Below are positions 2,224-36,305 of a DNA stretch of 36,538 nt, piece by piece. The stretch covers positions 1-36,538 of the IMG/VR virus record IMGVR_UViG_2654587996_000001; one strand, given 5' to 3'. The position numbers and the translations under genes are program-made. Below the pieces are notes generated by a model. That model searched no databases, was not told where the DNA came from, and was given only the letters and a program-made list of their open reading frames with translations. The stretch comes from a virus (Duplodnaviria > Heunggongvirae > Uroviricota > Caudoviricetes). How positions within the stretch are numbered: position 1 is the stretch's first letter; the number at the start of each line of letters is the position of its first letter.

Positions 2224-4302
2224 TTATCCTGCTGACGGGGTATTCACTTCCACCACAATGCTGTCAATCAGCACCGGATATGTCGCAGCGCTGGTGATAT
2301 CAGTCACCCGTAATTTGTCTGCCGTAAACGTGCCAACCGGAGACTGAGACAGCATGAATGGTGTCCCGTCCTTACCATCAATGACCGGCGTCACCTCAAT
2401 ACTGTTGTTACCGGCAAAACGGAAGCCCAGCGTATGCCATTCGTTATTAAATGCACCGAATGACCCCAGTTTCGTGTTTTGCGCCGTATTGCCCTTGTGG
2501 TACATCACGTTAAGGTCTGTGGCATCGCTCTGAACGTAAAACGATGCCAGCAGGTTATGACCGGCATTACCTTCCAGAGTAACCCCTTGCGGCAGGGCAG
2601 AAACCGGCCAGTACAGCGCCATCGCGTACTGATTAGCCGTAAGCGTACCATCAACCTTAAACCGGCAACTGACAAGGCCACCTTTACCCAGCAGGTCCGC
2701 ACCATTACCGGCATCATGCTCAAGGTACCAGGAGGATTTGCCTGTTTCCTTGGTCAGTTTCATGGCCTTACCACTACCTGCTCCGGCATCATCCACGATT
2801 TCAGCCTTGCCACCTCCCGCGCTCCAGCCCTGTGGTGACAGCTGACCTTCTGATTCAGATGTCCGGTAAGCAAACAGCGTGCTCATCGTCGTGGTGTCAG
2901 CCGGTGGAGTGGACGGTGTATCCGGCGATGGTGTTGATGGGGAGTCAGGTGATGGCTTCTCATCCGGTGGTGTCACGGTCTGCCCGCCCATCAGTTCAGC
3001 CGTGCGCCCTGCATGGAGCAGAATAGCGGAGGCCAGACGGTCTGAAATAATGCCCCTGCGTGCCCATGAGCTGAAATGGCTGTCACGCTGTGTCGAGACA
3101 AAACTGCCCTGAGTACGGGATGCTGCACCATAATACCCGACAGCCACAATATCCGGGTCTTCCGCCGGAGCATTTGTTGGCGTGTTTGCGCCGTTTTCAT
3201 CTGTCAGGAACGGTACAAAGAAAATATTCTGTGCTTCCTTGCCTTTGTAGCCACCGTATACTGTCTCATATTTATCGGTGCCAGCGTTTTTCCAGTAATA
3301 CGTGGTATCACCGCAAATCCACGGCACCGTGGTGGCATTTCCGCTCACACACTGTGCAGCAAGTGAGGACAGGTCAGTCCTGAACTGCTGAACCATGGCC
3401 GTGAATAAACCGTTATGCTGCTGACTGCCTGAAGCAAGGTCTGCCTCGCCCTGCATCCATACCACCGCCAGCAGCCTGTTTTTCGGGTTCTTCGCCAGCG
3501 CCGCTTTTGTCCGGCTGACCATGTCCTGATACAGGGGTTTACCGGCACCCCAGCGTGCAGCGTCAGCGGATGCGCCACTGGCCTCACTGAATGTACCGTC
3601 GGCACCGGTGGTGAATGCAGAACCACCACGACAGCAGGGCACCAGAAGTATCCCTGCATTCTGCGGGATATACGACAGCAGCTTTTTGGCAATATGCAGC
3701 CCCTGACTGACACAGCCATACTGCCCCTTATTCAGGTCCGCTTTCGGATGATTAACACCGCTCATATCCTGTACATCATGCAGACAATGGTCAGCCGGAA
3801 TCACATCATTGTATGCACAGGCGTCTCCACCCGGCGTCACTGTACTGCGGCGTGCCAGCTGTTTAATGCGCGGGTCCGGGCGGTCATAAGAGTCCGGTAA
3901 CGGAAGCCCCTCACCGTAGGCCATGCCGTTGGACTGTCCGGCAAGCACAACCACGTAGTAATACTCCGGCTCTCTGTTGCCGCCACTCACACTGCCGGAA
4001 GACCCGGCGTTATCCGGTGCATTCCAGTCCGATGGGGTGAGCGTTCCGGCCACATCCGACGTAATGGGAATGACGCCGGTCACGCCAGAGCTGGTAATTT
4101 CTGCACTGGGGGTACCGGACACAGGCATTACCCATAATGGCTCTTTCGTGCTGAAGCGGATCACACAATCTGCAAAGGTGATCCCGCCTTTATTACCCGA
4201 AGGCCGGAAAGGGCTTTCAATAAATGCCACAGTGCCACCGGCAACCTTGACTGAAAACTCTCCGGGCATGGCGGAGAGCATTTTCCACTGGGAGTCTGAC
4301 AT
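2224..4302 (-). CDS. SGNH/SASA-family esterase domain protein with Pro/Ser/Thr linker and C-terminal beta-rich domain; candidate virion-associated receptor-modifying enzyme
   Basis: Motif VVVLAGQSNGMAYG (GQSN nucleophile block of sialate O-acetylesterase-like SGNH hydrolases); linker PPDEKPSPDSPSTPSPDTPSTPPADTTT; no N-terminal signal peptide; located just past the tail fiber genes. Confidence 0.7.
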   Translation of the reverse strand: MSDSQWKMLSAMPGEFSVKVAGGTVAFIESPFRPSGNKGGITFADCVIRFSTKEPLWVMPVSGTPSAEITSSGVTGVIPITSDVAGTLTPSDWNAPDNAGSSGSVSGGNREPEYYYVVVLAGQSNGMAYGEGLPLPDSYDRPDPRIKQLARRSTVTPGGDACAYNDVIPADHCLHDVQDMSGVNHPKADLNKGQYGCVSQGLHIAKKLLSYIPQNAGILLVPCCRGGSAFTTGADGTFSEASGASADAARWGAGKPLYQDMVSRTKAALAKNPKNRLLAVVWMQGEADLASGSQQHNGLFTAMVQQFRTDLSSLAAQCVSGNATTVPWICGDTTYYWKNAGTDKYETVYGGYKGKEAQNIFFVPFLTDENGANTPTNAPAEDPDIVAVGYYGAASRTQGSFVSTQRDSHFSSWARRGIISDRLASAILLHAGRTAELMGGQTVTPPDEKPSPDSPSTPSPDTPSTPPADTTTMSTLFAYRTSESEGQLSPQGWSAGGGKAEIVDDAGAGSGKAMKLTKETGKSSWYLEHDAGNGADLLGKGGLVSCRFKVDGTLTANQYAMALYWPVSALPQGVTLEGNAGHNLLASFYVQSDATDLNVMYHKGNTAQNTKLGSFGAFNNEWHTLGFRFAGNNSIEVTPVIDGKDGTPFMLSQSPVGTFTADKLRVTDITSAATYPVLIDSIVVEVNTPSAG

Positions 4303-14213: not shown

Positions 14214-15695
14214 TCACAAAATGAAGCGGATCTGCGCGGCCATGAAGCGGAACTGGTTAACCAGGTCCGGTGTACACATCACATCCAGACGGTTACGGTC
14301 TTTTGCGTTGCGCTCCACGAGCAGATTCTTTTTAAAGGTGTCCAGGTTTTCGACCAGCCCCTGATCCACCCATTCTTCCCCCAGCGCAATCAGCTGGAGC
14401 GTCATGATCTCCGGCGTCACGATATTCTGACCGGGCCGGACGGGGGTGCCGTTATCGGCCAGTTTGTGGCGCGGGAAACGCTGCGTGATAAAGGTGCGCA
14501 GGGAATAACGCAGGTATGACAGGGTGTAGATAGTTTCCACATCCAGATAGCTGGGATCGCTTTCGCCGTAAGCATTCTGGCGGTACATCGTCACCTGACG
14601 CTCAATCTGCACCACATCACCGGCCGCGATGGTCACGGTGGATATTCCGGTATAAAGCAGGCTGTTGCGCTCTTCCCTCGTCAGACGCGCCGGGGCTTCC
14701 GGTGCCATACGGGCAGGCAGCGCCAGTGTCTGTAATGGTCGGGCCGGATCTGTTGACAGGGACGGTGCACAGACCGCACAAATGGAGGCCGCCCAGATAT
14801 AATCCGGCTCCGGTGCCTTCGGAATGGAGGTGCAGGTAAACAGGAAGTCGTTCCGGGATTCACCAAAGCTGGTTACCGCGCCTAATGTGCCGGTGTGCGC
14901 CATCCAGACCATACCGTCGGACATTTTTACCGGTCCCCAGCGTTTCAGCAGCTCATCTGCCAGAATCTTAAGGTTTGCGCTGTCCTTATAGGGCATCACT
15001 ATATAGTTATACTGGCGCGTCCCCATGGCTGCGATACTGTGGGTGATATCCGGGTTTTTTGGCGCAGTACCACCGGCCAGCGACACCGTAATACCGGCTG
15101 GCGTGACTTCACCGGAATAATAATTCAGCCGGACATCATGCACGGAACACTCGCCGGTAAACTTCGCTGTCAGGGTGATCACTTTTCTGGTCTGATCCTG
15201 ATTGCCGTCCGGCACGGAAGTGCTGGCCGTCACCGGACTGTCATTGTCAGCGTTTATCATGGTGGAAAGATCATCCGCCAGAATGTTGCCCTGTTTGCCT
15301 TTCGTGACCGCCATATAATAAGGGCGACCGGCAATATAGAGATTCAGGGTGCCGTCTTCCGTTGCCGTACCGGAAAGCGTGATCGTGCCTGAAGTGGCGG
15401 TGCCGGTGCCTTCGCCCTGCGCAATGGCATACAGTTCCGTGTCAGGATTACTGGCAATAAAGGCTTCCACCATCCGGGCAATCATGGAGCCGCGTCCCCA
15501 GAGTTCTGTCGCCTGAGCGGCGCGGGTGATACGTACCGGGGAATCCACCACCCCGAACGCATTACGGTTTCGCTGCCCGAACAACAGCACCGCCTGCCGC
15601 TGTGGCGGCGTACCGGTCACGGCCATCGAGTTATTAATTTCAATCTGTATCAGCGGAATACGGTTGTTATCGCCGATGAAATCAAAGTTAATCAT
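14214..15695 (-). CDS. Contractile tail sheath protein
   Basis: 493 aa, syntenic with Mu L; followed by the tube gene. Confidence 0.8.
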   Translation of the reverse strand: MINFDFIGDNNRIPLIQIEINNSMAVTGTPPQRQAVLLFGQRNRNAFGVVDSPVRITRAAQATELWGRGSMIARMVEAFIASNPDTELYAIAQGEGTGTATSGTITLSGTATEDGTLNLYIAGRPYYMAVTKGKQGNILADDLSTMINADNDSPVTASTSVPDGNQDQTRKVITLTAKFTGECSVHDVRLNYYSGEVTPAGITVSLAGGTAPKNPDITHSIAAMGTRQYNYIVMPYKDSANLKILADELLKRWGPVKMSDGMVWMAHTGTLGAVTSFGESRNDFLFTCTSIPKAPEPDYIWAASICAVCAPSLSTDPARPLQTLALPARMAPEAPARLTREERNSLLYTGISTVTIAAGDVVQIERQVTMYRQNAYGESDPSYLDVETIYTLSYLRYSLRTFITQRFPRHKLADNGTPVRPGQNIVTPEIMTLQLIALGEEWVDQGLVENLDTFKKNLLVERNAKDRNRLDVMCTPDLVNQFRFMAAQIRFIL

Positions 15696-15958
15696 CAGGA
15701 AGTCCCCTTGTCTGATGCTGCGGGTTTTTCAGCCGCAGGTTTTTCTGCTGCCGCTCCCGCGGGTTTTCCGGCGGCATCAGTCGTTGCAGACGCTGCTGCT
15801 TCCGCCGCTTTTTCCACCACAATGACGTCCCCGTCATTAAGACGGCGGCACCAGAACGGGGTGAAGGGTTTTTCCTCTCCCTCCTGCGCCAGCGGTTTCA
15901 TGGTGTCCGGATCGCGGATCAGGCATCCCGGCGCGGGTTTGATAAAAATGGTTGTCAT
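15695..15958 (-). CDS. Small virion protein, Mu gp38 position
   Basis: 87 aa with Ala/Lys/Pro-rich C-terminus; position only. Confidence 0.4.
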   Translation of the reverse strand: MTTIFIKPAPGCLIRDPDTMKPLAQEGEEKPFTPFWCRRLNDGDVIVVEKAAEAAASATTDAAGKPAGAAAEKPAAEKPAASDKGTS

Positions 15959-15961
15959 CTG

Positions 15962-16525
15962 TTATTCCTCTGACGGTCCGGCTTTTTCACCGGCGGCGGT
16001 TGCACCTGGCAGGCTGATGTGCGCCTCAAATGCCGGTGTGCCTTCCGGTTCGGTGAAGGTTTCGTAATGGCGCAGGAAATCATCCAGCGAGCTGATATCA
16101 GTCAGCGGTGCGATCATTTCCTCGCAGGCGAAATAAAGCGCATACATCACCGCGCCACTGTCGGCCTGCGTTTCGGTGTAACCGTTGACCGCCTTTTCAA
16201 AGTAAAGCGGTGAGGTGTTTTCTGTTCTGAAGCCGTTCAGTACGGCAATCAGACGGGCCACAATCTGATAAAGCCCCGGACGGCTGGCCTCACGCCCGTT
16301 GAGCATGTCGCCGATGACGTAGAACACCCAGTGACTGACCAGACGACCACGGGTCCGGCCTTCACCGGCACCCAGCCAGGCAACGTAGATCGCCGGGGCG
16401 TTAATCAGCATGGTGCGCAGCACACTGTCGCTCCAGTCGCCGGGATGCGTGTCCACCGACACCAGTTCGTTCCCGAAATACTCCCGGATGCGGGCGATGT
16501 ACGCCTGTTCGGTTTCCGTAATCAT
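15962..16525 (-). CDS. Head-tail joining/tail completion protein, Mu gp37 position
   Basis: 187 aa; synteny only. Confidence 0.45.
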   Translation of the reverse strand: MITETEQAYIARIREYFGNELVSVDTHPGDWSDSVLRTMLINAPAIYVAWLGAGEGRTRGRLVSHWVFYVIGDMLNGREASRPGLYQIVARLIAVLNGFRTENTSPLYFEKAVNGYTETQADSGAVMYALYFACEEMIAPLTDISSLDDFLRHYETFTEPEGTPAFEAHISLPGATAAGEKAGPSEE

Positions 16526-16941
16526 ATGAAGCCCTTCTGGTTGCGCCCGAATACCGCCGCATCAGACTGCACCTGCGGTAAATCCCCGGATTCAGGAGCC
16601 TCGCCGTCCGTATCCACGCCGACCGGCACGTTGCCGTTCATGACGTCTTTCAGCCAGGCCAGCGCCTCACGGTAACGGTCACGCGCCTGATCGGAGGCCC
16701 GCTGATCGCACAGGTAATAAAAGGCAATCGCGCAGCAGTGCTGAACAAGGACCGCCGGAACTACCGCCAGCGGCAGCGTGTAACGGGCAGACAGGTAACT
16801 GTCGATAAGGGCAGACGCATCCGTCAGCGCCCGGTTCAGCTTGCTTGTGTCCGGCTCATCCGAACGGGGCACGCTCAGTAATGACCTGAGAAAATCCTCG
16901 CGGTAACGCGCCCGCATATCGGTTTCGGTGGCGTAATTCAT
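16522..16941 (-). CDS. Head-tail connector protein, Mu gp36 position
   Basis: 139 aa; synteny only. Confidence 0.45.
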   Translation of the reverse strand: MNYATETDMRARYREDFLRSLLSVPRSDEPDTSKLNRALTDASALIDSYLSARYTLPLAVVPAVLVQHCCAIAFYYLCDQRASDQARDRYREALAWLKDVMNGNVPVGVDTDGEAPESGDLPQVQSDAAVFGRNQKGFI

Positions 16942-17387
16942 GCACGGACCTTTTTCGCCTGTTTCGCTTTGCTACCGGTATTTTTCCGGGGAGCATCCTG
17001 TCCGGCTTCGGCTTCGGCTTCGGCTTCGGCTTCGGCTTCGGCTTCGGCTTCGGCTTCGGCTTCGGCTTCGGCTTCGGCTTCGGCTTCGGCTTCGGCTTCG
17101 GCTCCGGCTAAATCTGCACCGGTCTCTGCATGAACCACACCCGCCACGGCTCCCGCATCATCACCAGGCGTCTGTAGTATTCGTACAGTGAGGCATGGCT
17201 CCGCTTCCAGTCGGGCAAGCTGCTCCGGGGTGACGTCAACCTGCTGGCGTCCCCGCATGAACAGGAACCCCGCACGACGAAACTGCGTACGACTGCAACG
17301 CACTTCTGCCAGTACCGTGACAGGATTGTCACCACTGACCCGAAGACCTGAATCATCTGTTGCTGCCACAGTGTGATGTTCATTCAT
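16938..17387 (-). CDS. Head protein carrying a (Glu-Ala)n repeat and a basic C-terminal tail
   Basis: 149 aa; the Glu-Ala run (one Gly-Ala plus 16 Glu-Ala pairs) is encoded by the hexanucleotide array at 17005-17106; lies between the major head gene and the connector-like gene. Confidence 0.55.
   Translation of the reverse strand: MNEHHTVAATDDSGLRVSGDNPVTVLAEVRCSRTQFRRAGFLFMRGRQQVDVTPEQLARLEAEPCLTVRILQTPGDDAGAVAGVVHAETGADLAGAEAEAEAEAEAEAEAEAEAEAEAEAEAEAEAEAGQDAPRKNTGSKAKQAKKVRA
17005..17106. repeat. Tandem hexanucleotide repeat (GCTTCG)16 plus one imperfect unit
   Basis: Read directly: 96 nt of perfect GCTTCG units at 17005-17100, then GCTCCG. Confidence 0.9.
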
Positions 17388-17430
17388 ATTTGCCCTCCGC
17401 AGGGGCCGGGCCGTAAGCCCGGCTCACCGT

Positions 17431-18378
17431 TTACAGATAATCCGCGACAACCAGTTCCAGCTTGCCTTTCATCTCGTTGGAGACGGTGGTGTTACCGTCC
17501 GCGAACAGCTCGCGCTCCAGCAGCTGCACCGCCTGTTTTTCCAGCGAGGTGGGGACAACAATATGGGTGGGTCTGATGCCGAGTTTGCGGCCACCGTCAG
17601 CCTTAAAGTCACGCATGGCTGACCAGCCGTGCCACAGCGCATCCAGCGTCAGCGGTGACTGCATCATGTAGGCCATCTGCCAGAAGCCGTAGCCCACATT
17701 GCGACGGGCGGAAGCACCGAACACAAACTCGTTATCAGTAAACGCACGGCCTTCATCGACTTTTGTCTGGGCAACCAGTTCGGCCTTGCGGCGATCCTGA
17801 TAAATCAGCGGTTTTACCGCGCGGGAGCAGTCAAGCAGATACCAGGCCGGGCCGCTGTAATCCGCCTGTGCACCGACAGAGCCGGTTTTTGCCACAAACA
17901 TGTTGCTGACCAGCTCCACATCACCGGTACCATCCACATTTGGGTAGACGGGGTGTTCGGTATCAAAGAAGTTCTGGCCGTCATAGCAGGCTGCATTGAT
18001 CCCGTCACGCAGTGCAGCAAAGACCAGTTCATCCGGTTGTGCCGCCGCAGCGCGTCCCATCTCCTGGAACAACGGGGAGTAGATGCCGAGATTGTCGTCT
18101 TCAAAGTCATCGCGGCTGATGGCAACGGTGCCTTCAAAGGTTTTGTTCACGATGGCGTAGCCATAGGCTTTCATCTTCTCGATGACGCGGGAGCCGATCC
18201 ACTCACGGAACTGCGGGAACTGCCCCAGCCAGCCGTAGGTGTTGGATTTCGACGTGGACGGCACGGTCATCGCAATTTTCTGGTACTGCGACGGGGCCAT
18301 GGACATCCCGGCCTGAAAATCAGAACGGTAGCCCGTCATCAGGGCGGTGATCATCGCCGGTGTAATCGGGGTAGGCAT
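17431..18378 (-). CDS. Major head (capsid) subunit, Mu T-like
   Basis: 315 aa, downstream of the protease/scaffold gene; a GC-rich hairpin at 17404-17422 follows its stop. Confidence 0.75.
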   Translation of the reverse strand: MPTPITPAMITALMTGYRSDFQAGMSMAPSQYQKIAMTVPSTSKSNTYGWLGQFPQFREWIGSRVIEKMKAYGYAIVNKTFEGTVAISRDDFEDDNLGIYSPLFQEMGRAAAAQPDELVFAALRDGINAACYDGQNFFDTEHPVYPNVDGTGDVELVSNMFVAKTGSVGAQADYSGPAWYLLDCSRAVKPLIYQDRRKAELVAQTKVDEGRAFTDNEFVFGASARRNVGYGFWQMAYMMQSPLTLDALWHGWSAMRDFKADGGRKLGIRPTHIVVPTSLEKQAVQLLERELFADGNTTVSNEMKGKLELVVADYL

Positions 18379-19511
18379 TATTGCATTTCCTCTTTCATTT
18401 TCAGGAACTCGGCTTCGGTTTTACCCAGCAGATGGGCGGCGGCGATATCTTCAGCCGACAGCACAGCGGTGGCGGTCTTTTTATCCGGCACGGTCACGGT
18501 GTCAGTCTGAAGGCCGGTCAGGGCCGCAACCGGCTGACGGGCGTCAAGCTGAGCTGAGAGAGCCGCCACGCCAATCTGCTGGCCGAGTCCTTCCATATAT
18601 CCACGTTCGCTTTTGAAGATGCGCCCTTCGGATTCGGCCTTGTCCAGCAGCTGCTCCAGCGTGGTGCTGCCATGCTGTGCCGACAGCGCGACATATTCGG
18701 TACGCAGGGCGTTATACGTCTCAACGGGCACATATTTCGTCAGATCGATAGTGCCGCCAGCCGGTGTGCCTTTTGCGGTTTCCAGCTCTGCCGACAGGCT
18801 GGCAACCTGCGTTTTCAGGGTGTCGTGCGCATCCGCACGGTTTTTGATCCCGGTAAGGGCAGACAGCGCCGCCGTGCCCAGTTCCGGTGTAAATTCGTCA
18901 CCGTCAGCCACGGTCAGACCGAGCGCCGTCAGCAACTGGCGTAATTGCTCATTCATGGGGGATTGCTCCTGAGAAGGGGAAACGACATAGAGATCGTCAG
19001 CACTGAGTGCCGCGACAGGGTTCATACCCGTAATACCCGGATCATTCGTCAGGGAAGCCATGCGCAAAAGGTAGGGTTCCCCGGTGTCAGCGAAATAATG
19101 CATATATGCAGACAGATAGGCATATTCACGGTCATCAATATGTTTTTGTGCCTGTGGCGTCCATTCAGGTTTAATGAAAATCCCCTGACCCTCACGCCAT
19201 TCGATGTTTTCCGGCTTAACCCATCCTGCGGCAATAGCCTTGAATCCGTTTTTCTTCGCATTCACGGAGTGGTGGTCATAATCAATCAGTAACGGCTGAT
19301 GCAGGGCGAAAAGCCCGGCTTTCATCCGGTTACAGGCGGATTCGTTAATCAGCCAGCCTTCAGCCGGTTTTTCCGGGCGACCGTCACGGGCCTTTACCCT
19401 GCCTGCTGGCAGTAACTGACACCATCCGTCGCCGGATGCAGTCAGCGAAGCTGAAAGCACGGCTAAACCGGAGGGGCGATTTGCGTCTTTTGGGGGATTT
19501 TCTGTCTTCAT
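18378..19511 (-). CDS. Head protease / scaffold protein, Mu I-like
   Basis: 377 aa, syntenic position upstream of the major head gene. Confidence 0.65.
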   Translation of the reverse strand: MKTENPPKDANRPSGLAVLSASLTASGDGWCQLLPAGRVKARDGRPEKPAEGWLINESACNRMKAGLFALHQPLLIDYDHHSVNAKKNGFKAIAAGWVKPENIEWREGQGIFIKPEWTPQAQKHIDDREYAYLSAYMHYFADTGEPYLLRMASLTNDPGITGMNPVAALSADDLYVVSPSQEQSPMNEQLRQLLTALGLTVADGDEFTPELGTAALSALTGIKNRADAHDTLKTQVASLSAELETAKGTPAGGTIDLTKYVPVETYNALRTEYVALSAQHGSTTLEQLLDKAESEGRIFKSERGYMEGLGQQIGVAALSAQLDARQPVAALTGLQTDTVTVPDKKTATAVLSAEDIAAAHLLGKTEAEFLKMKEEMQ

Positions 19512-32985: not shown

Positions 32986-33213
32986 TTAGCTGACTTGTTT
33001 TGCACCAACAGAACGGCATATTCCACTGTAAACCTCTGTCGCACCTTCGCGATCAAGTCCGGCAGATATCACCATTCGCGTGCGGTCATTAAATTCAAAA
33101 AGTAAATCGCCACATTCTTTATTTTCGGCCAGTGAAATCACTTTCACGTTATCGAAATTCACCAGGTAAAAGCGTCCGTAGATATCAGGAATATTAAATG
33201 CAGCCATAATCAC
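32986..33213 (-). CDS. Small early protein (75 aa) in the position Mu uses for kil
   Basis: Immediately downstream of B with a 4-nt overlap; position only. Confidence 0.35.
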   Translation of the reverse strand: MIMAAFNIPDIYGRFYLVNFDNVKVISLAENKECGDLLFEFNDRTRMVISAGLDREGATEVYSGICRSVGAKQVS

Positions 33214-34142
33214 ACCTGTGAGAGTAATTCAGGGTTGGTATAAACCTCTTTAAAGGCCGCATTAATATGTTTTTCTGTCAGCGCGGCACCTTCACCGCTG
33301 GCGGTGATCCACGCCTGGTTAAGCGTATGTGTCAGAACGCGTAAGGCTCCCGGCTTTTCAGCGATAGCCTGCATGACAGCCAGCTCGGCCTCACCACTAA
33401 TCCCCCATGCCCTGGCAATAGCCAGCACATCCGCCTTTTTGGCCTTGCGAAGTTGTTTTGTACGGGCAAGACGGCTGAACAGGCGCGATAAATCATCAAC
33501 GGTGCGGCGTCCACCCTTAAACAGTCCGCGCGGGTTACCAATAAGCACCATCCCGATCCCCGTGGCGTCCTGGATTGCACGCAGTTGTTCCAGACCGTCA
33601 ATACCAAGATGATCCGCCTCATCAACAATCACCAGTCCACGAGTTCCCATCAGGCGACGGCGGATGGCGCGGGATAACGCCCCCTTGTTCGCGCGGGTGT
33701 AATCAATCCCCAGTTCCTCTGCCAGCTCCAGCATACACTCCGTGACGCTGGAATGCGCGGGCGACAGGGTGATCATCCAGGTGTTCGGTTGCTCCTGACA
33801 GTAATTGCGGGCCGTGGCCGTTTTACCCACACCCGGTACGCCCACAATGACGTTAATACAGCCCATCAGGCGAACCGCCTGAAACAACGCGCGCAGCTCC
33901 TGGACTGTCTGCGTTTCCACAAACTGCGGCGGTTCCGGCAGTGCGCTTTGTTTATTCCAGTTCTCATACCAGGAACGCAGGGAAGCAGCCACAGCAGCGT
34001 TATCGCCTTTATATTTTCCCTTACGGAAAGCCGATAATGTGCCGTCGGAAATTCCCGCCTCTCTGGCGATGGCATACTGCGTCAGCACGCCGCCATCAAT
34101 AAGTTCATCAATGGTCTTGATTACATCGTTTATATCGGTCAT
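33210..34142 (-). CDS. B: Transposition ATPase MuB-like (AAA+ target DNA activator)
   Basis: Walker A GVPGVGKT and Walker B LVIVDEADHL; 310 aa; immediately downstream of the transposase. Confidence 0.85.
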   Translation of the reverse strand: MTDINDVIKTIDELIDGGVLTQYAIAREAGISDGTLSAFRKGKYKGDNAAVAASLRSWYENWNKQSALPEPPQFVETQTVQELRALFQAVRLMGCINVIVGVPGVGKTATARNYCQEQPNTWMITLSPAHSSVTECMLELAEELGIDYTRANKGALSRAIRRRLMGTRGLVIVDEADHLGIDGLEQLRAIQDATGIGMVLIGNPRGLFKGGRRTVDDLSRLFSRLARTKQLRKAKKADVLAIARAWGISGEAELAVMQAIAEKPGALRVLTHTLNQAWITASGEGAALTEKHINAAFKEVYTNPELLSQV

Positions 34143-34217: not shown

Positions 34218-36305
34218 TCAGGCCAGCGGATCATTTTCTTTTAATTTCGCTTCCAGCAGCTGCAATCCCCGCTGGAAGTTACGCTCGTATTCGTCATCAG
34301 GTTCATCATCAACGGCAGGTCTCTGAACGGCCACCGTATTACCTACCGGGCGGTATATGTTTTCCAGCCATGGCTCCTGTGGCTTGTGCTCCAGCACGTT
34401 GACAACCTCATCCTCGGCATCACGGATTTTTTCCTCTGCGCGTTTACGCATACCTTTAAGGCGCTGCTGCTGTTTGTAGTATTCCGCGCTGACCGGGAAG
34501 GCTTCGCGTTTATTGCCGTCCCATACCGCCTCGCAAATCACACTGCCATCCAGGCGACGCACGGTAATTCGCTCAGCATCATGAATGTCATAGCTGATAA
34601 GCACCTTACGACCATGCTCGTCACGCAGCTCGGGCGCGTAGTAAATATTATTCAGCCAGCGTATTTCACAGCGTCTTACAGGGCGCTCCACCATCGGCCG
34701 GAACATATCCCGCAGCTCAACATCGGACAGCCATTCAATTTCCGTGTCCTCTTCCGCCAGGCGTTTTTTTCTGAACTCCGCCGGGCTGTAATGTTTACCG
34801 TTCGGCTTCATGGGTAATTCATCGTGCGGCCGGTTGTTGTACCACTCAACGCCGTCACGAATGGCATCAATCAGTTCAGACCAGGACGGTAAATCACGCA
34901 TCGCTGACTGCTGCCGGGCGTTCAGCCGCTTGCCCTGTTGCAGGGCACTGAATGCCGAGCGTAAATCGCGGTTGGTTTTACGTAACGTCTCGCGATCTGC
35001 ACCTTTCCCGAAATAGGTGCGGTATTTACGGGCTATGCGCATCGGTAATGTGCGGTTAAGCCGTTCGATAATGCCCCGTCCCTGCGGGTTACCGGCAATC
35101 CCGGTCGGGTGATTAATCCCCAGTCGCGGCAGTATCCCCACAATCTCCTTATCCAGGACGTCGGCGGTTTCCCCCGAGCCATTATCCGAGTAATACAGAA
35201 ACGGTTTGCCGTGATGTCGAATACCGTGCTGTATGGCACCGGCTACGGCGAAAACATTTTCAGCCAGGTCAAGGCTCCAGCCCACCACAAAGCGCGTGCC
35301 GCCGTCGATAACAAAGGTCACTTCCGGTGCAAATGGCCGCCCGTGAACCGGGTGTGCGCATTTCAGCTTCATGCCGTGACCGTCACCAATCCAGACATAA
35401 TTCACCGGCATTTTTGACCAGTCGCGGCGAGTGAACCCCTCAAGCTGGCGGTATTCACTGCCGGTAACCCGGCCTTTTTGTTTCACCACTTCCGGCAGTT
35501 TCTTCATTGCGCGGCGAATGGTGTCATAAGAGGGCATGATATCGAGCATATAAGGCTCATCAGCGTGCCGGTGCTGCCATTCAGCGACAAAATCCTCGTA
35601 AGCCTCGGTCATTGGTCGGCCGTTTGACTGGCGATACTGCGCCAGAAACTCGGGCAGCCAGTTAATATCTTCGGCTTTTATTTCCTGACGTTTACCCGGT
35701 GCCAGTAAAAGCAGGCGTTCAGCGGCGTTCTGCGCCTTGTTAAAGGCCGCAATCCAGCGTTTCAGCGTGATTTCACTCAACGCGCGGCTGTTTCCCTTTT
35801 TGGCGTTCGCCGTCTCAACCATTGCCACAATGCGCTCGTCCAGTTGTGATCGTGCCAGGCTGTTAACGAGGAACCGGATAGCCTTAGCGCAACTAAAGCC
35901 GGGTTGTTGCGCGATTTTCAGCGCCTCGCTGACGATCGCTATTCGTGCCTCTGCCACTTTACGTTGGTTTTCAGTCAGGGCATTGAGGCGTTCGACCATC
36001 AGTTGGGGTGATCCGCGATATGCCTCCACCGCATCAACCACGGCAGGTGAGCGTCTGGCCTTTGTCACCACCGGAGCCGGTGATTCATCGGCTTTTTGCG
36101 TCATCAGTTGCAGGGCGTAGCGTTCACGTAATGCCTGCTGCGTCACTTCAGGTAAACAGTCGATGCTGTATTCAAAACCTTTAGTGCCTTCCTGGCGGCG
36201 TCTGCTGGTTTCGCTGGTTGCATACTTCCTGATTGAATAGCGGACGCCTTGCTCCGTTCCCGGCATTCCCGGTAATCCAACCAGCTCTTTAACTGAAGCA
36301 AACAT
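34218..36305 (-). CDS. A: DDE transposase MuA-like
   Basis: 695 aa; catalytic-core region WIGDGHGMKL...SDNGSGE; position between ner and B. Confidence 0.85.
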   Translation of the reverse strand: MFASVKELVGLPGMPGTEQGVRYSIRKYATSETSRRRQEGTKGFEYSIDCLPEVTQQALRERYALQLMTQKADESPAPVVTKARRSPAVVDAVEAYRGSPQLMVERLNALTENQRKVAEARIAIVSEALKIAQQPGFSCAKAIRFLVNSLARSQLDERIVAMVETANAKKGNSRALSEITLKRWIAAFNKAQNAAERLLLLAPGKRQEIKAEDINWLPEFLAQYRQSNGRPMTEAYEDFVAEWQHRHADEPYMLDIMPSYDTIRRAMKKLPEVVKQKGRVTGSEYRQLEGFTRRDWSKMPVNYVWIGDGHGMKLKCAHPVHGRPFAPEVTFVIDGGTRFVVGWSLDLAENVFAVAGAIQHGIRHHGKPFLYYSDNGSGETADVLDKEIVGILPRLGINHPTGIAGNPQGRGIIERLNRTLPMRIARKYRTYFGKGADRETLRKTNRDLRSAFSALQQGKRLNARQQSAMRDLPSWSELIDAIRDGVEWYNNRPHDELPMKPNGKHYSPAEFRKKRLAEEDTEIEWLSDVELRDMFRPMVERPVRRCEIRWLNNIYYAPELRDEHGRKVLISYDIHDAERITVRRLDGSVICEAVWDGNKREAFPVSAEYYKQQQRLKGMRKRAEEKIRDAEDEVVNVLEHKPQEPWLENIYRPVGNTVAVQRPAVDDEPDDEYERNFQRGLQLLEAKLKENDPLA

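Follow-up and report, generated by a model that had tools for sequence, protein, structure and literature searches.

[quoted passage not shown] The hexanucleotide loci of O157:H7 MLVA (O157-10, O157-3 and TR4) are built from short perfect 6-bp units, whose whole-unit changes are ascribed to slipped-strand mispairing and have rates per generation between 4.4e-5 and 1.8e-3, the alleles of more than ~13 units being the most prone to change (PMC3777172). The contingency loci of Haemophilus and Neisseria also use slippage in simple repeats in or near genes to generate high-frequency heritable variation, there by shifting frame or promoter spacing and so turning genes on or off. On the phage side, O157 strains carry Mu-like prophages at strain-specific sites (PMC7430833), and the Sp18 prophage of O157:H7 Sakai was judged intact in silico (PMC2669165). 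Gene 35 of phage Mu lies between T and J, and its product was not resolved in cryo-EM of the Mu virion (PMC11915804). We describe here a hexanucleotide array within the gene 35 orthologue of a Mu-like prophage, a coding VNTR that probably varies by slipped-strand mispairing in a disordered, weakly constrained protein tail.

The window (the whole stretch of DNA that was analysed, 36,538 nucleotides) is filled almost entirely by this Mu-like prophage, whose landmarks and immediate surroundings of the repeat-bearing gene are as follows.

34218..36305: transposase A
33210..34142: transposase B
18378..19511: protease/scaffold gpI
17431..18378, minus strand: major head subunit gpT, upstream neighbour of the repeat-bearing gene (Pfam Mu-like_gpT, E 2.5e-119)
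17402..17428, minus strand: GC-rich hairpin without a T-run, between the gpT stop and the gp35-like gene (RNA fold)
17394..17398, minus strand: Shine–Dalgarno-like GGAGG, 6 nt upstream of the ATG (read from sequence)
16522..16941, minus strand: gp36 head–tail adaptor, downstream neighbour (Pfam Phage_Mu_Gp36, E 9e-37)
15962..16525: gp37
14214..15695: sheath

Portal, MuF-like and gpG-like proteins, a DUF2635 protein, a tape measure and baseplate genes complete the module. The order of major head gene, repeat-bearing gene and gp36 adaptor gene matches that of the Mu gp35 family, and the window gene sits at the place of gene 35 in Mu. The same layout, in opposite orientation, is found in Sp18 (annotated 'Mu-like phage') of Sakai, whose orthologue ECs_4975 (NC_002695.2 5061524..5061910; L055 33525..33911) carries 8 units; we found no support for its label 'DNA processing protein'. 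The best E. coli matches to the window are 93–96% identical, and the Sp18-type prophage locus is present in 227–233 of 5,426 complete E. coli genomes (~4%), in roughly 265 copies altogether since some genomes hold 2 to 4. The hairpin ahead of the gene (−23.6 kcal/mol, z −1.8) occupies a place equivalent to the predicted terminator after gene T in the curated Mu record, and may govern how much capsid protein is made relative to the proteins encoded downstream.

Two further proteins of the prophage are recorded as side observations. The DUF2635 (Mu gp38-like) protein (15695..15958, minus strand), 1.1 kb from the array, has a second low-complexity, length-variable C-terminal tail, rich in Ala, Glu, Lys and Pro with AEKPA/TEKPA-type units, and in relatives the protein is 76 to 95 residues long. 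A 692-residue protein (2224..4302, minus strand), encoded close to the genes for tail fibre and fibre assembly, combines a SASA (sialate O-acetylesterase-type) domain with DUF6645 and may be a receptor-modifying tail protein.

The gene and its repeat can be divided into the following parts.

16938..17387, minus strand: gene for a 149-residue gp35-like ('HI1506-related') protein, assigned as orthologous to Mu gene 35 and ECs_4975 (ORF, Pfam, hhalign)
17172..17315, minus strand: folded N-terminal domain, residues ~25–72, β-hairpin plus helix plus strand (AlphaFold2, Pfam)
17003..17109, minus strand: hexanucleotide tandem array (VNTR), 16 perfect units plus 1 variant unit (Tandem Repeats Finder, perfect period, shuffles)
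17100..17105, minus strand: variant unit GGA-GCC encoding Gly-Ala, residues 95–96, which L047, the closest relative, has twice
17004..17099, minus strand: (Glu-Ala)x16, 16 pure GAA-GCC codon pairs, residues 97–128 (codon listing)
16938..17003, minus strand: basic C-terminal tail GQDAPRKNTGSKAKQAKKVRA plus stop codon (ORF, codon listing)

On the plus strand the array reads as 16 exact copies of GCTTCG (17005..17100) inside a perfect period-6 tract of 101 nt (17003..17103); Tandem Repeats Finder extends it to 17003..17109 (period 6, 17.8 copies, 99% matches, score 207). No other array in the window comes near it in strength, and it is the sole microsatellite there with a period above 3 and at least 4 units, and a four-unit probe (at most 1 mismatch) finds 14 matches in the window versus 0 in 100 dinucleotide-preserving shuffles. 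The 16 copies of the 6-nt unit are exact and run head to tail, as units do in bacterial VNTRs. The array is read from the minus strand, in the register GGA-GCC once followed by GAA-GCC 16 times, with no synonymous variation among the 16 units. The stop codon that follows the tail overlaps the gp36 start (ATGA). The preliminary description had counted 16 perfect GCTTCG units plus one imperfect unit, and the exact count agrees; its translation as Gly-Ala, 16 Glu-Ala pairs and a lysine-rich tail, in a protein of the head module, is likewise borne out by the codon listing and the ORF. The anatomy it gave therefore stands, apart from a unit register one base off the codon register, which is of no consequence.

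The folded part of the protein is small. Pfam FluMu_N (PF17891) matches residues 36–72 (35.8 bits, gathering cutoff 25.8), and the only solved relative, HI1506/FluMu gp35 (PDB 2OUT), matches the N-domain alone (E 5e-4), with the PDB and Pfam matches both falling within residues 33–83. AlphaFold2 gives pLDDT values of 89–96 over residues 21–70, below 66 elsewhere and below 55 across the Glu-Ala tract. The link to Mu gp35 comes from profile comparison only (hhalign of the family profile, probability 99.9%, E 5.5e-31); together with gene order it identifies the 149-residue protein, at the level of sequence, as orthologous to Mu gene 35 in position and in its N-domain. The E. coli orthologues are named 'HI1506-related protein' by NCBI and are given no function in PHROGs. 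The skin-prophage protein YqbF of Bacillus subtilis (PDB 2HJQ), also compared, scores below the usual level of significance and shows no sequence similarity.

Mu gp35, HI1506 and most of the distant relatives share an architecture of N-domain, linker and a helical C-domain of ~50 residues, with the linker, variable in both length and composition, at the same position as the tract. In our alignments the distal half of this helical domain is absent from the window protein, and the tail GQDAPRKNTGSKAKQAKKVRA aligns weakly to its first part; judged from these alignments, the Glu-Ala tract and basic tail replace the distal C-domain in the E. coli/Sp18-type protein. The tract contributes −16 and the 21-residue tail (5 Lys and 2 Arg) +6, for a net protein charge of −14. 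Ala/Glu/Lys low-complexity tails are also present in two unrelated members of the family (P0081 and P0091).

The exact window protein has no counterpart on record, and neither a protein-pattern scan plus exact 39-mer scan of the GTDB genome collection nor an exact-match scan of IMG/VR returned a match. When 50,697 phage records were searched by tblastn with the N-domain, only two Stx phages with an inserted Mu-like phage matched. As an observation in its own right, the Stx-converting prophage records LC727895.1 and LC727881.1 each contain a whole Mu-like phage of this type, annotated there as 'region of the inserted Bacteriophage Mu-like phage'.

Comparison of relatives shows that unit number varies on flanks that barely differ. 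The closest relative (L047) has 1 difference from the window in 2,400 flanking positions, yet 9 units to the window's 17, arranged as GGAGCC twice and GAAGCC seven times where the window has GGAGCC once and GAAGCC 16 times. Contigs of the window lineage that encode an identical gp36 carry 6, 9, 11, 16 and 20 units. The Sp18 lineage provides the clearest series, with 14 E. coli chromosomes (among them Sakai, FRIK2533, an O111:H8 strain, F1 E4 and strain 143) that have 0 differences over 3.3 kb of flanks and hold 5, 6, 8, 8, 10, 11, 13, 13, 13, 14, 14, 15, 16 and 20 pure GAAGCC units. Six cattle isolates from one accession series (chromosomes of 5,453,897 to 5,455,349 bp) have 13, 13, 13, 14, 14 and 15 units. 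Relatives in IMG/VR show 1, 2, 3, 4, 5, 6, 7, 9, 11, 12 and 14 units, and one pair (L015 and L019) separated by 1 SNP in 2,200 nt has 7 versus 5.

Span-based estimates for 59 records, an even sample of the 227 E. coli genomes with the locus and made with an estimator checked against sequenced alleles, return 20 and all values between 1 and 17 other than 3. The overall allele range is thus 1 to 20 units, always in whole units, and the window, with 17 (of which 16 are pure), falls in the upper tail of this distribution. Every one of the ~45 sequenced alleles has a whole number of 6-nt units, and the reading frame and the overlapping ATGA stop/start consequently remain intact in each. The preliminary description had proposed that slippage would expand and contract the array in frame, so that the length of an acidic linker could differ between isolates. 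Repeat number is indeed not identical across the related prophages compared, with 5 to 20 units at 0 of 3,300 flank differences and every change a whole unit; near-identical flanks with differing counts support the slippage prediction, the mechanism itself being a reading of sequence comparisons.

Assemblies repeatedly break at the array, and 'partial' annotations result: contigs built from short reads start or stop in or beside it (L022, L023, L048, L049 and L050), and database proteins truncated at the array include P0041, P0057, P0063, P0065, P0068 and P0069. The tract is therefore hard to assemble, which raises the alternative that the apparent copy-number variation comes from faulty assembly or consensus calling in low-complexity sequence and that the alleles are not real. 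We consider this very improbable. Array lengths always differ by an exact multiple of 6, and the units are perfect; the variation appears in finished genomes, Sakai included, that were produced by many laboratories and on many platforms; independent isolates share alleles (13 units three times and 14 units twice); and array lengths of 30 to 120 nt are well inside single long or short reads. Consensus error could underlie some of the differences that separate near-clonal assemblies, although these too are multiples of 6 and come from independent data sets.

The composition of the alleles bears on their history. Long alleles are pure, with 16 to 20 units on the same two codons, and their lack of synonymous variants indicates recent amplification and not selection for composition. 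Variant units (GGAGCC, Gly-Ala; GAAACC, Glu-Thr; and units encoding Glu-Val and Glu-Ser) are found duplicated too. One-unit alleles are constant across flanks with up to 20 SNPs, and long alleles vary at 0 SNPs, in what is a small sample.

The most probable course of events can be set out from these comparisons of assemblies, which are the source for both the molecular mechanism and its rate. During replication of prophage DNA, the nascent and template strands would misalign in the GAAGCC run by slipped-strand mispairing, with unequal recombination as a possible route to larger jumps. Whole units would be gained or lost, one Glu-Ala pair per unit, and each event would leave the frame, the basic tail and the ATGA overlap with the gp36 gene undisturbed. 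The unit equals two codons, so there is no on/off switching and only spacer length and net charge change. The protein tolerates anything from 1 to 20 pairs in its disordered segment, so alleles would drift freely, and change in long pure arrays outpaces point substitution anywhere in the 3 kb around them.

The gene as a whole is under little restraint. When the window is compared with the Sp18 lineage, dN/dS comes to 0.06 for gpT, 0.10 for gp36 and 0.88 for the first 94 codons of the repeat-bearing gene, which divides into 0.42 for the folded core and 3.2 outside it (small counts); substitutions fall 12/10/12 across its three codon positions. Its synonymous divergence is unusually low (dS 0.086, versus 0.28–0.30 in the neighbours). 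Identity to an Edwardsiella prophage is 38% for the 149-residue protein, 85% for gpT and 53–62% for three other proteins of the module. By these sequence measures the repeat-bearing gene is the least constrained member of its module, which fits a tolerant, probably accessory protein, although diversifying selection, and not relaxed constraint, could lie behind the elevated ratio outside the core, where counts are small.

A rival proposal is that copy number is adaptively tuned, a selected 'dial' on an acidic spacer between N-domain and basic tail whose length and charge alter some head–neck or DNA-handling property, so that slippage supplies heritable phenotypic diversity. Beyond the excess of amino-acid change outside the folded core, the array is long and pure in many lineages, the Ala/Glu/Lys tails of P0081 and P0091 arose independently, and net charge changes by one per unit, a shift of ~19 units over the allele range that may not be harmless. 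We nevertheless regard tuning as unlikely: nearly every length from 1 to 20 is found with no preferred value, the variation occurs in lysogen copies in which late genes are silent, and gp35 is a protein without known function that was not seen in the Mu virion. Some copies also lie in prophages with frameshifted sheath genes, as annotated in the Sp18-type copies of STEC799 (L033 1..472) and 2013C-4225 (L040 1..472), and for this reason part of the array variation may stem from decaying, unselected prophages. The stronger form of the idea, in which the array is a fast-mutating length-and-charge dial on a neck- or DNA-associated protein and serves bet-hedging in a virion-assembly gene, we hold to be quite unlikely. 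If it were true, slippage over the many rounds of replicative transposition would make each burst a mix of gp35 forms with different ways of engaging packaged DNA or the connector. The reading that we infer to be most likely is that tract length drifts in a near-neutral manner, and the functional effect of repeat length is probably small.

A different kind of explanation would place the significance of the repeat outside the Glu-Ala sequence as such, in a DNA- or RNA-level role or as the mark of another coding frame. One candidate frame is present.

17108..17383, minus strand: overlapping +1-frame ORF of 91 codons, stopping just before the array

This ORF is open in all 17 of 17 distinct alleles, a state that survives in only 1.3% of synonymous recodings of the main frame, and 14 of 34 substitutions are synonymous in the +1 frame against 22% expected (synonymous to non-synonymous 14:20, compared with 10:24 in the annotated frame). 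The signal is weak after allowing for the number of frames tested, however, and the ORF ends before the array. The annotated frame has clear family homology, and in Edwardsiella the +1 frame is open but no start codon lies close to where it begins; these sequence data do not establish the +1 ORF as a real gene. As to a role in the nucleic acid itself, the GAAGCC unit is not self-complementary, and a promoter and terminator scan finds no such signal at the array. We accordingly give this explanation very little credence, and retain slippage in a weakly constrained coding tail as the account of the locus.

The array opens no new class of mechanism, and the mechanism here is ordinary. Its value lies elsewhere. 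The locus is a very fast marker that splits otherwise identical Sp18-type prophages in Shiga-toxin-producing E. coli, with a resolution illustrated by three alleles among six near-clonal cattle isolates. It also breaks short-read assemblies and truncates protein records, and annotators and typing pipelines should therefore know of it. For the biology of the phage, the region after the N-domain of this Mu gp35 orthologue tolerates 2 to 40 extra residues of Glu-Ala tract, and that tolerance is one of few constraints available on the role of gp35 in Mu-like phages.

Placed beside described proteins, the product of the gene recalls gp39 of the Mu-like siphophage JBD30 (a Soc-like decoration protein; PMC11445458) in being small, encoded directly downstream of the major capsid gene and in possessing a disordered segment. 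Assignment as a capsid decoration protein was rejected, there being no match to a β-tadpole fold and Mu having no decoration protein. The closer comparison is with Mu gp35 and FluMu gp35 (HI1506, 2OUT, PF17891), which share its gene position, N-domain homology and a flexible segment after the N-domain; those proteins end in the helical domain of ~50 residues, whereas here (Glu-Ala)n and a 21-residue basic tail are found instead.

As a repeat, the array has slippage within a gene and rapid heritable variation in common with the contingency loci of Haemophilus and Neisseria, but it is not a phase-variable on/off locus: the 6-nt unit lies inside an ORF, every allele is in frame and the gene stays on. 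Our literature search found no description of the locus, of ECs4975 or of an Sp18 VNTR, with the primary catalogues (Keys 2005, Vogler 2006) lying outside the comparison. The nearest likeness is to the hexanucleotide MLVA loci of O157:H7 (PMC3777172), which have the same short perfect units and whole-unit changes, and alleles that differ between close isolates, as here. What sets the present array apart from them is its location in a transposable, Sp18-type Mu-like prophage; that prophage is found in only ~4% of complete E. coli genomes, and the array is for that reason not a species-wide marker as a typing locus.
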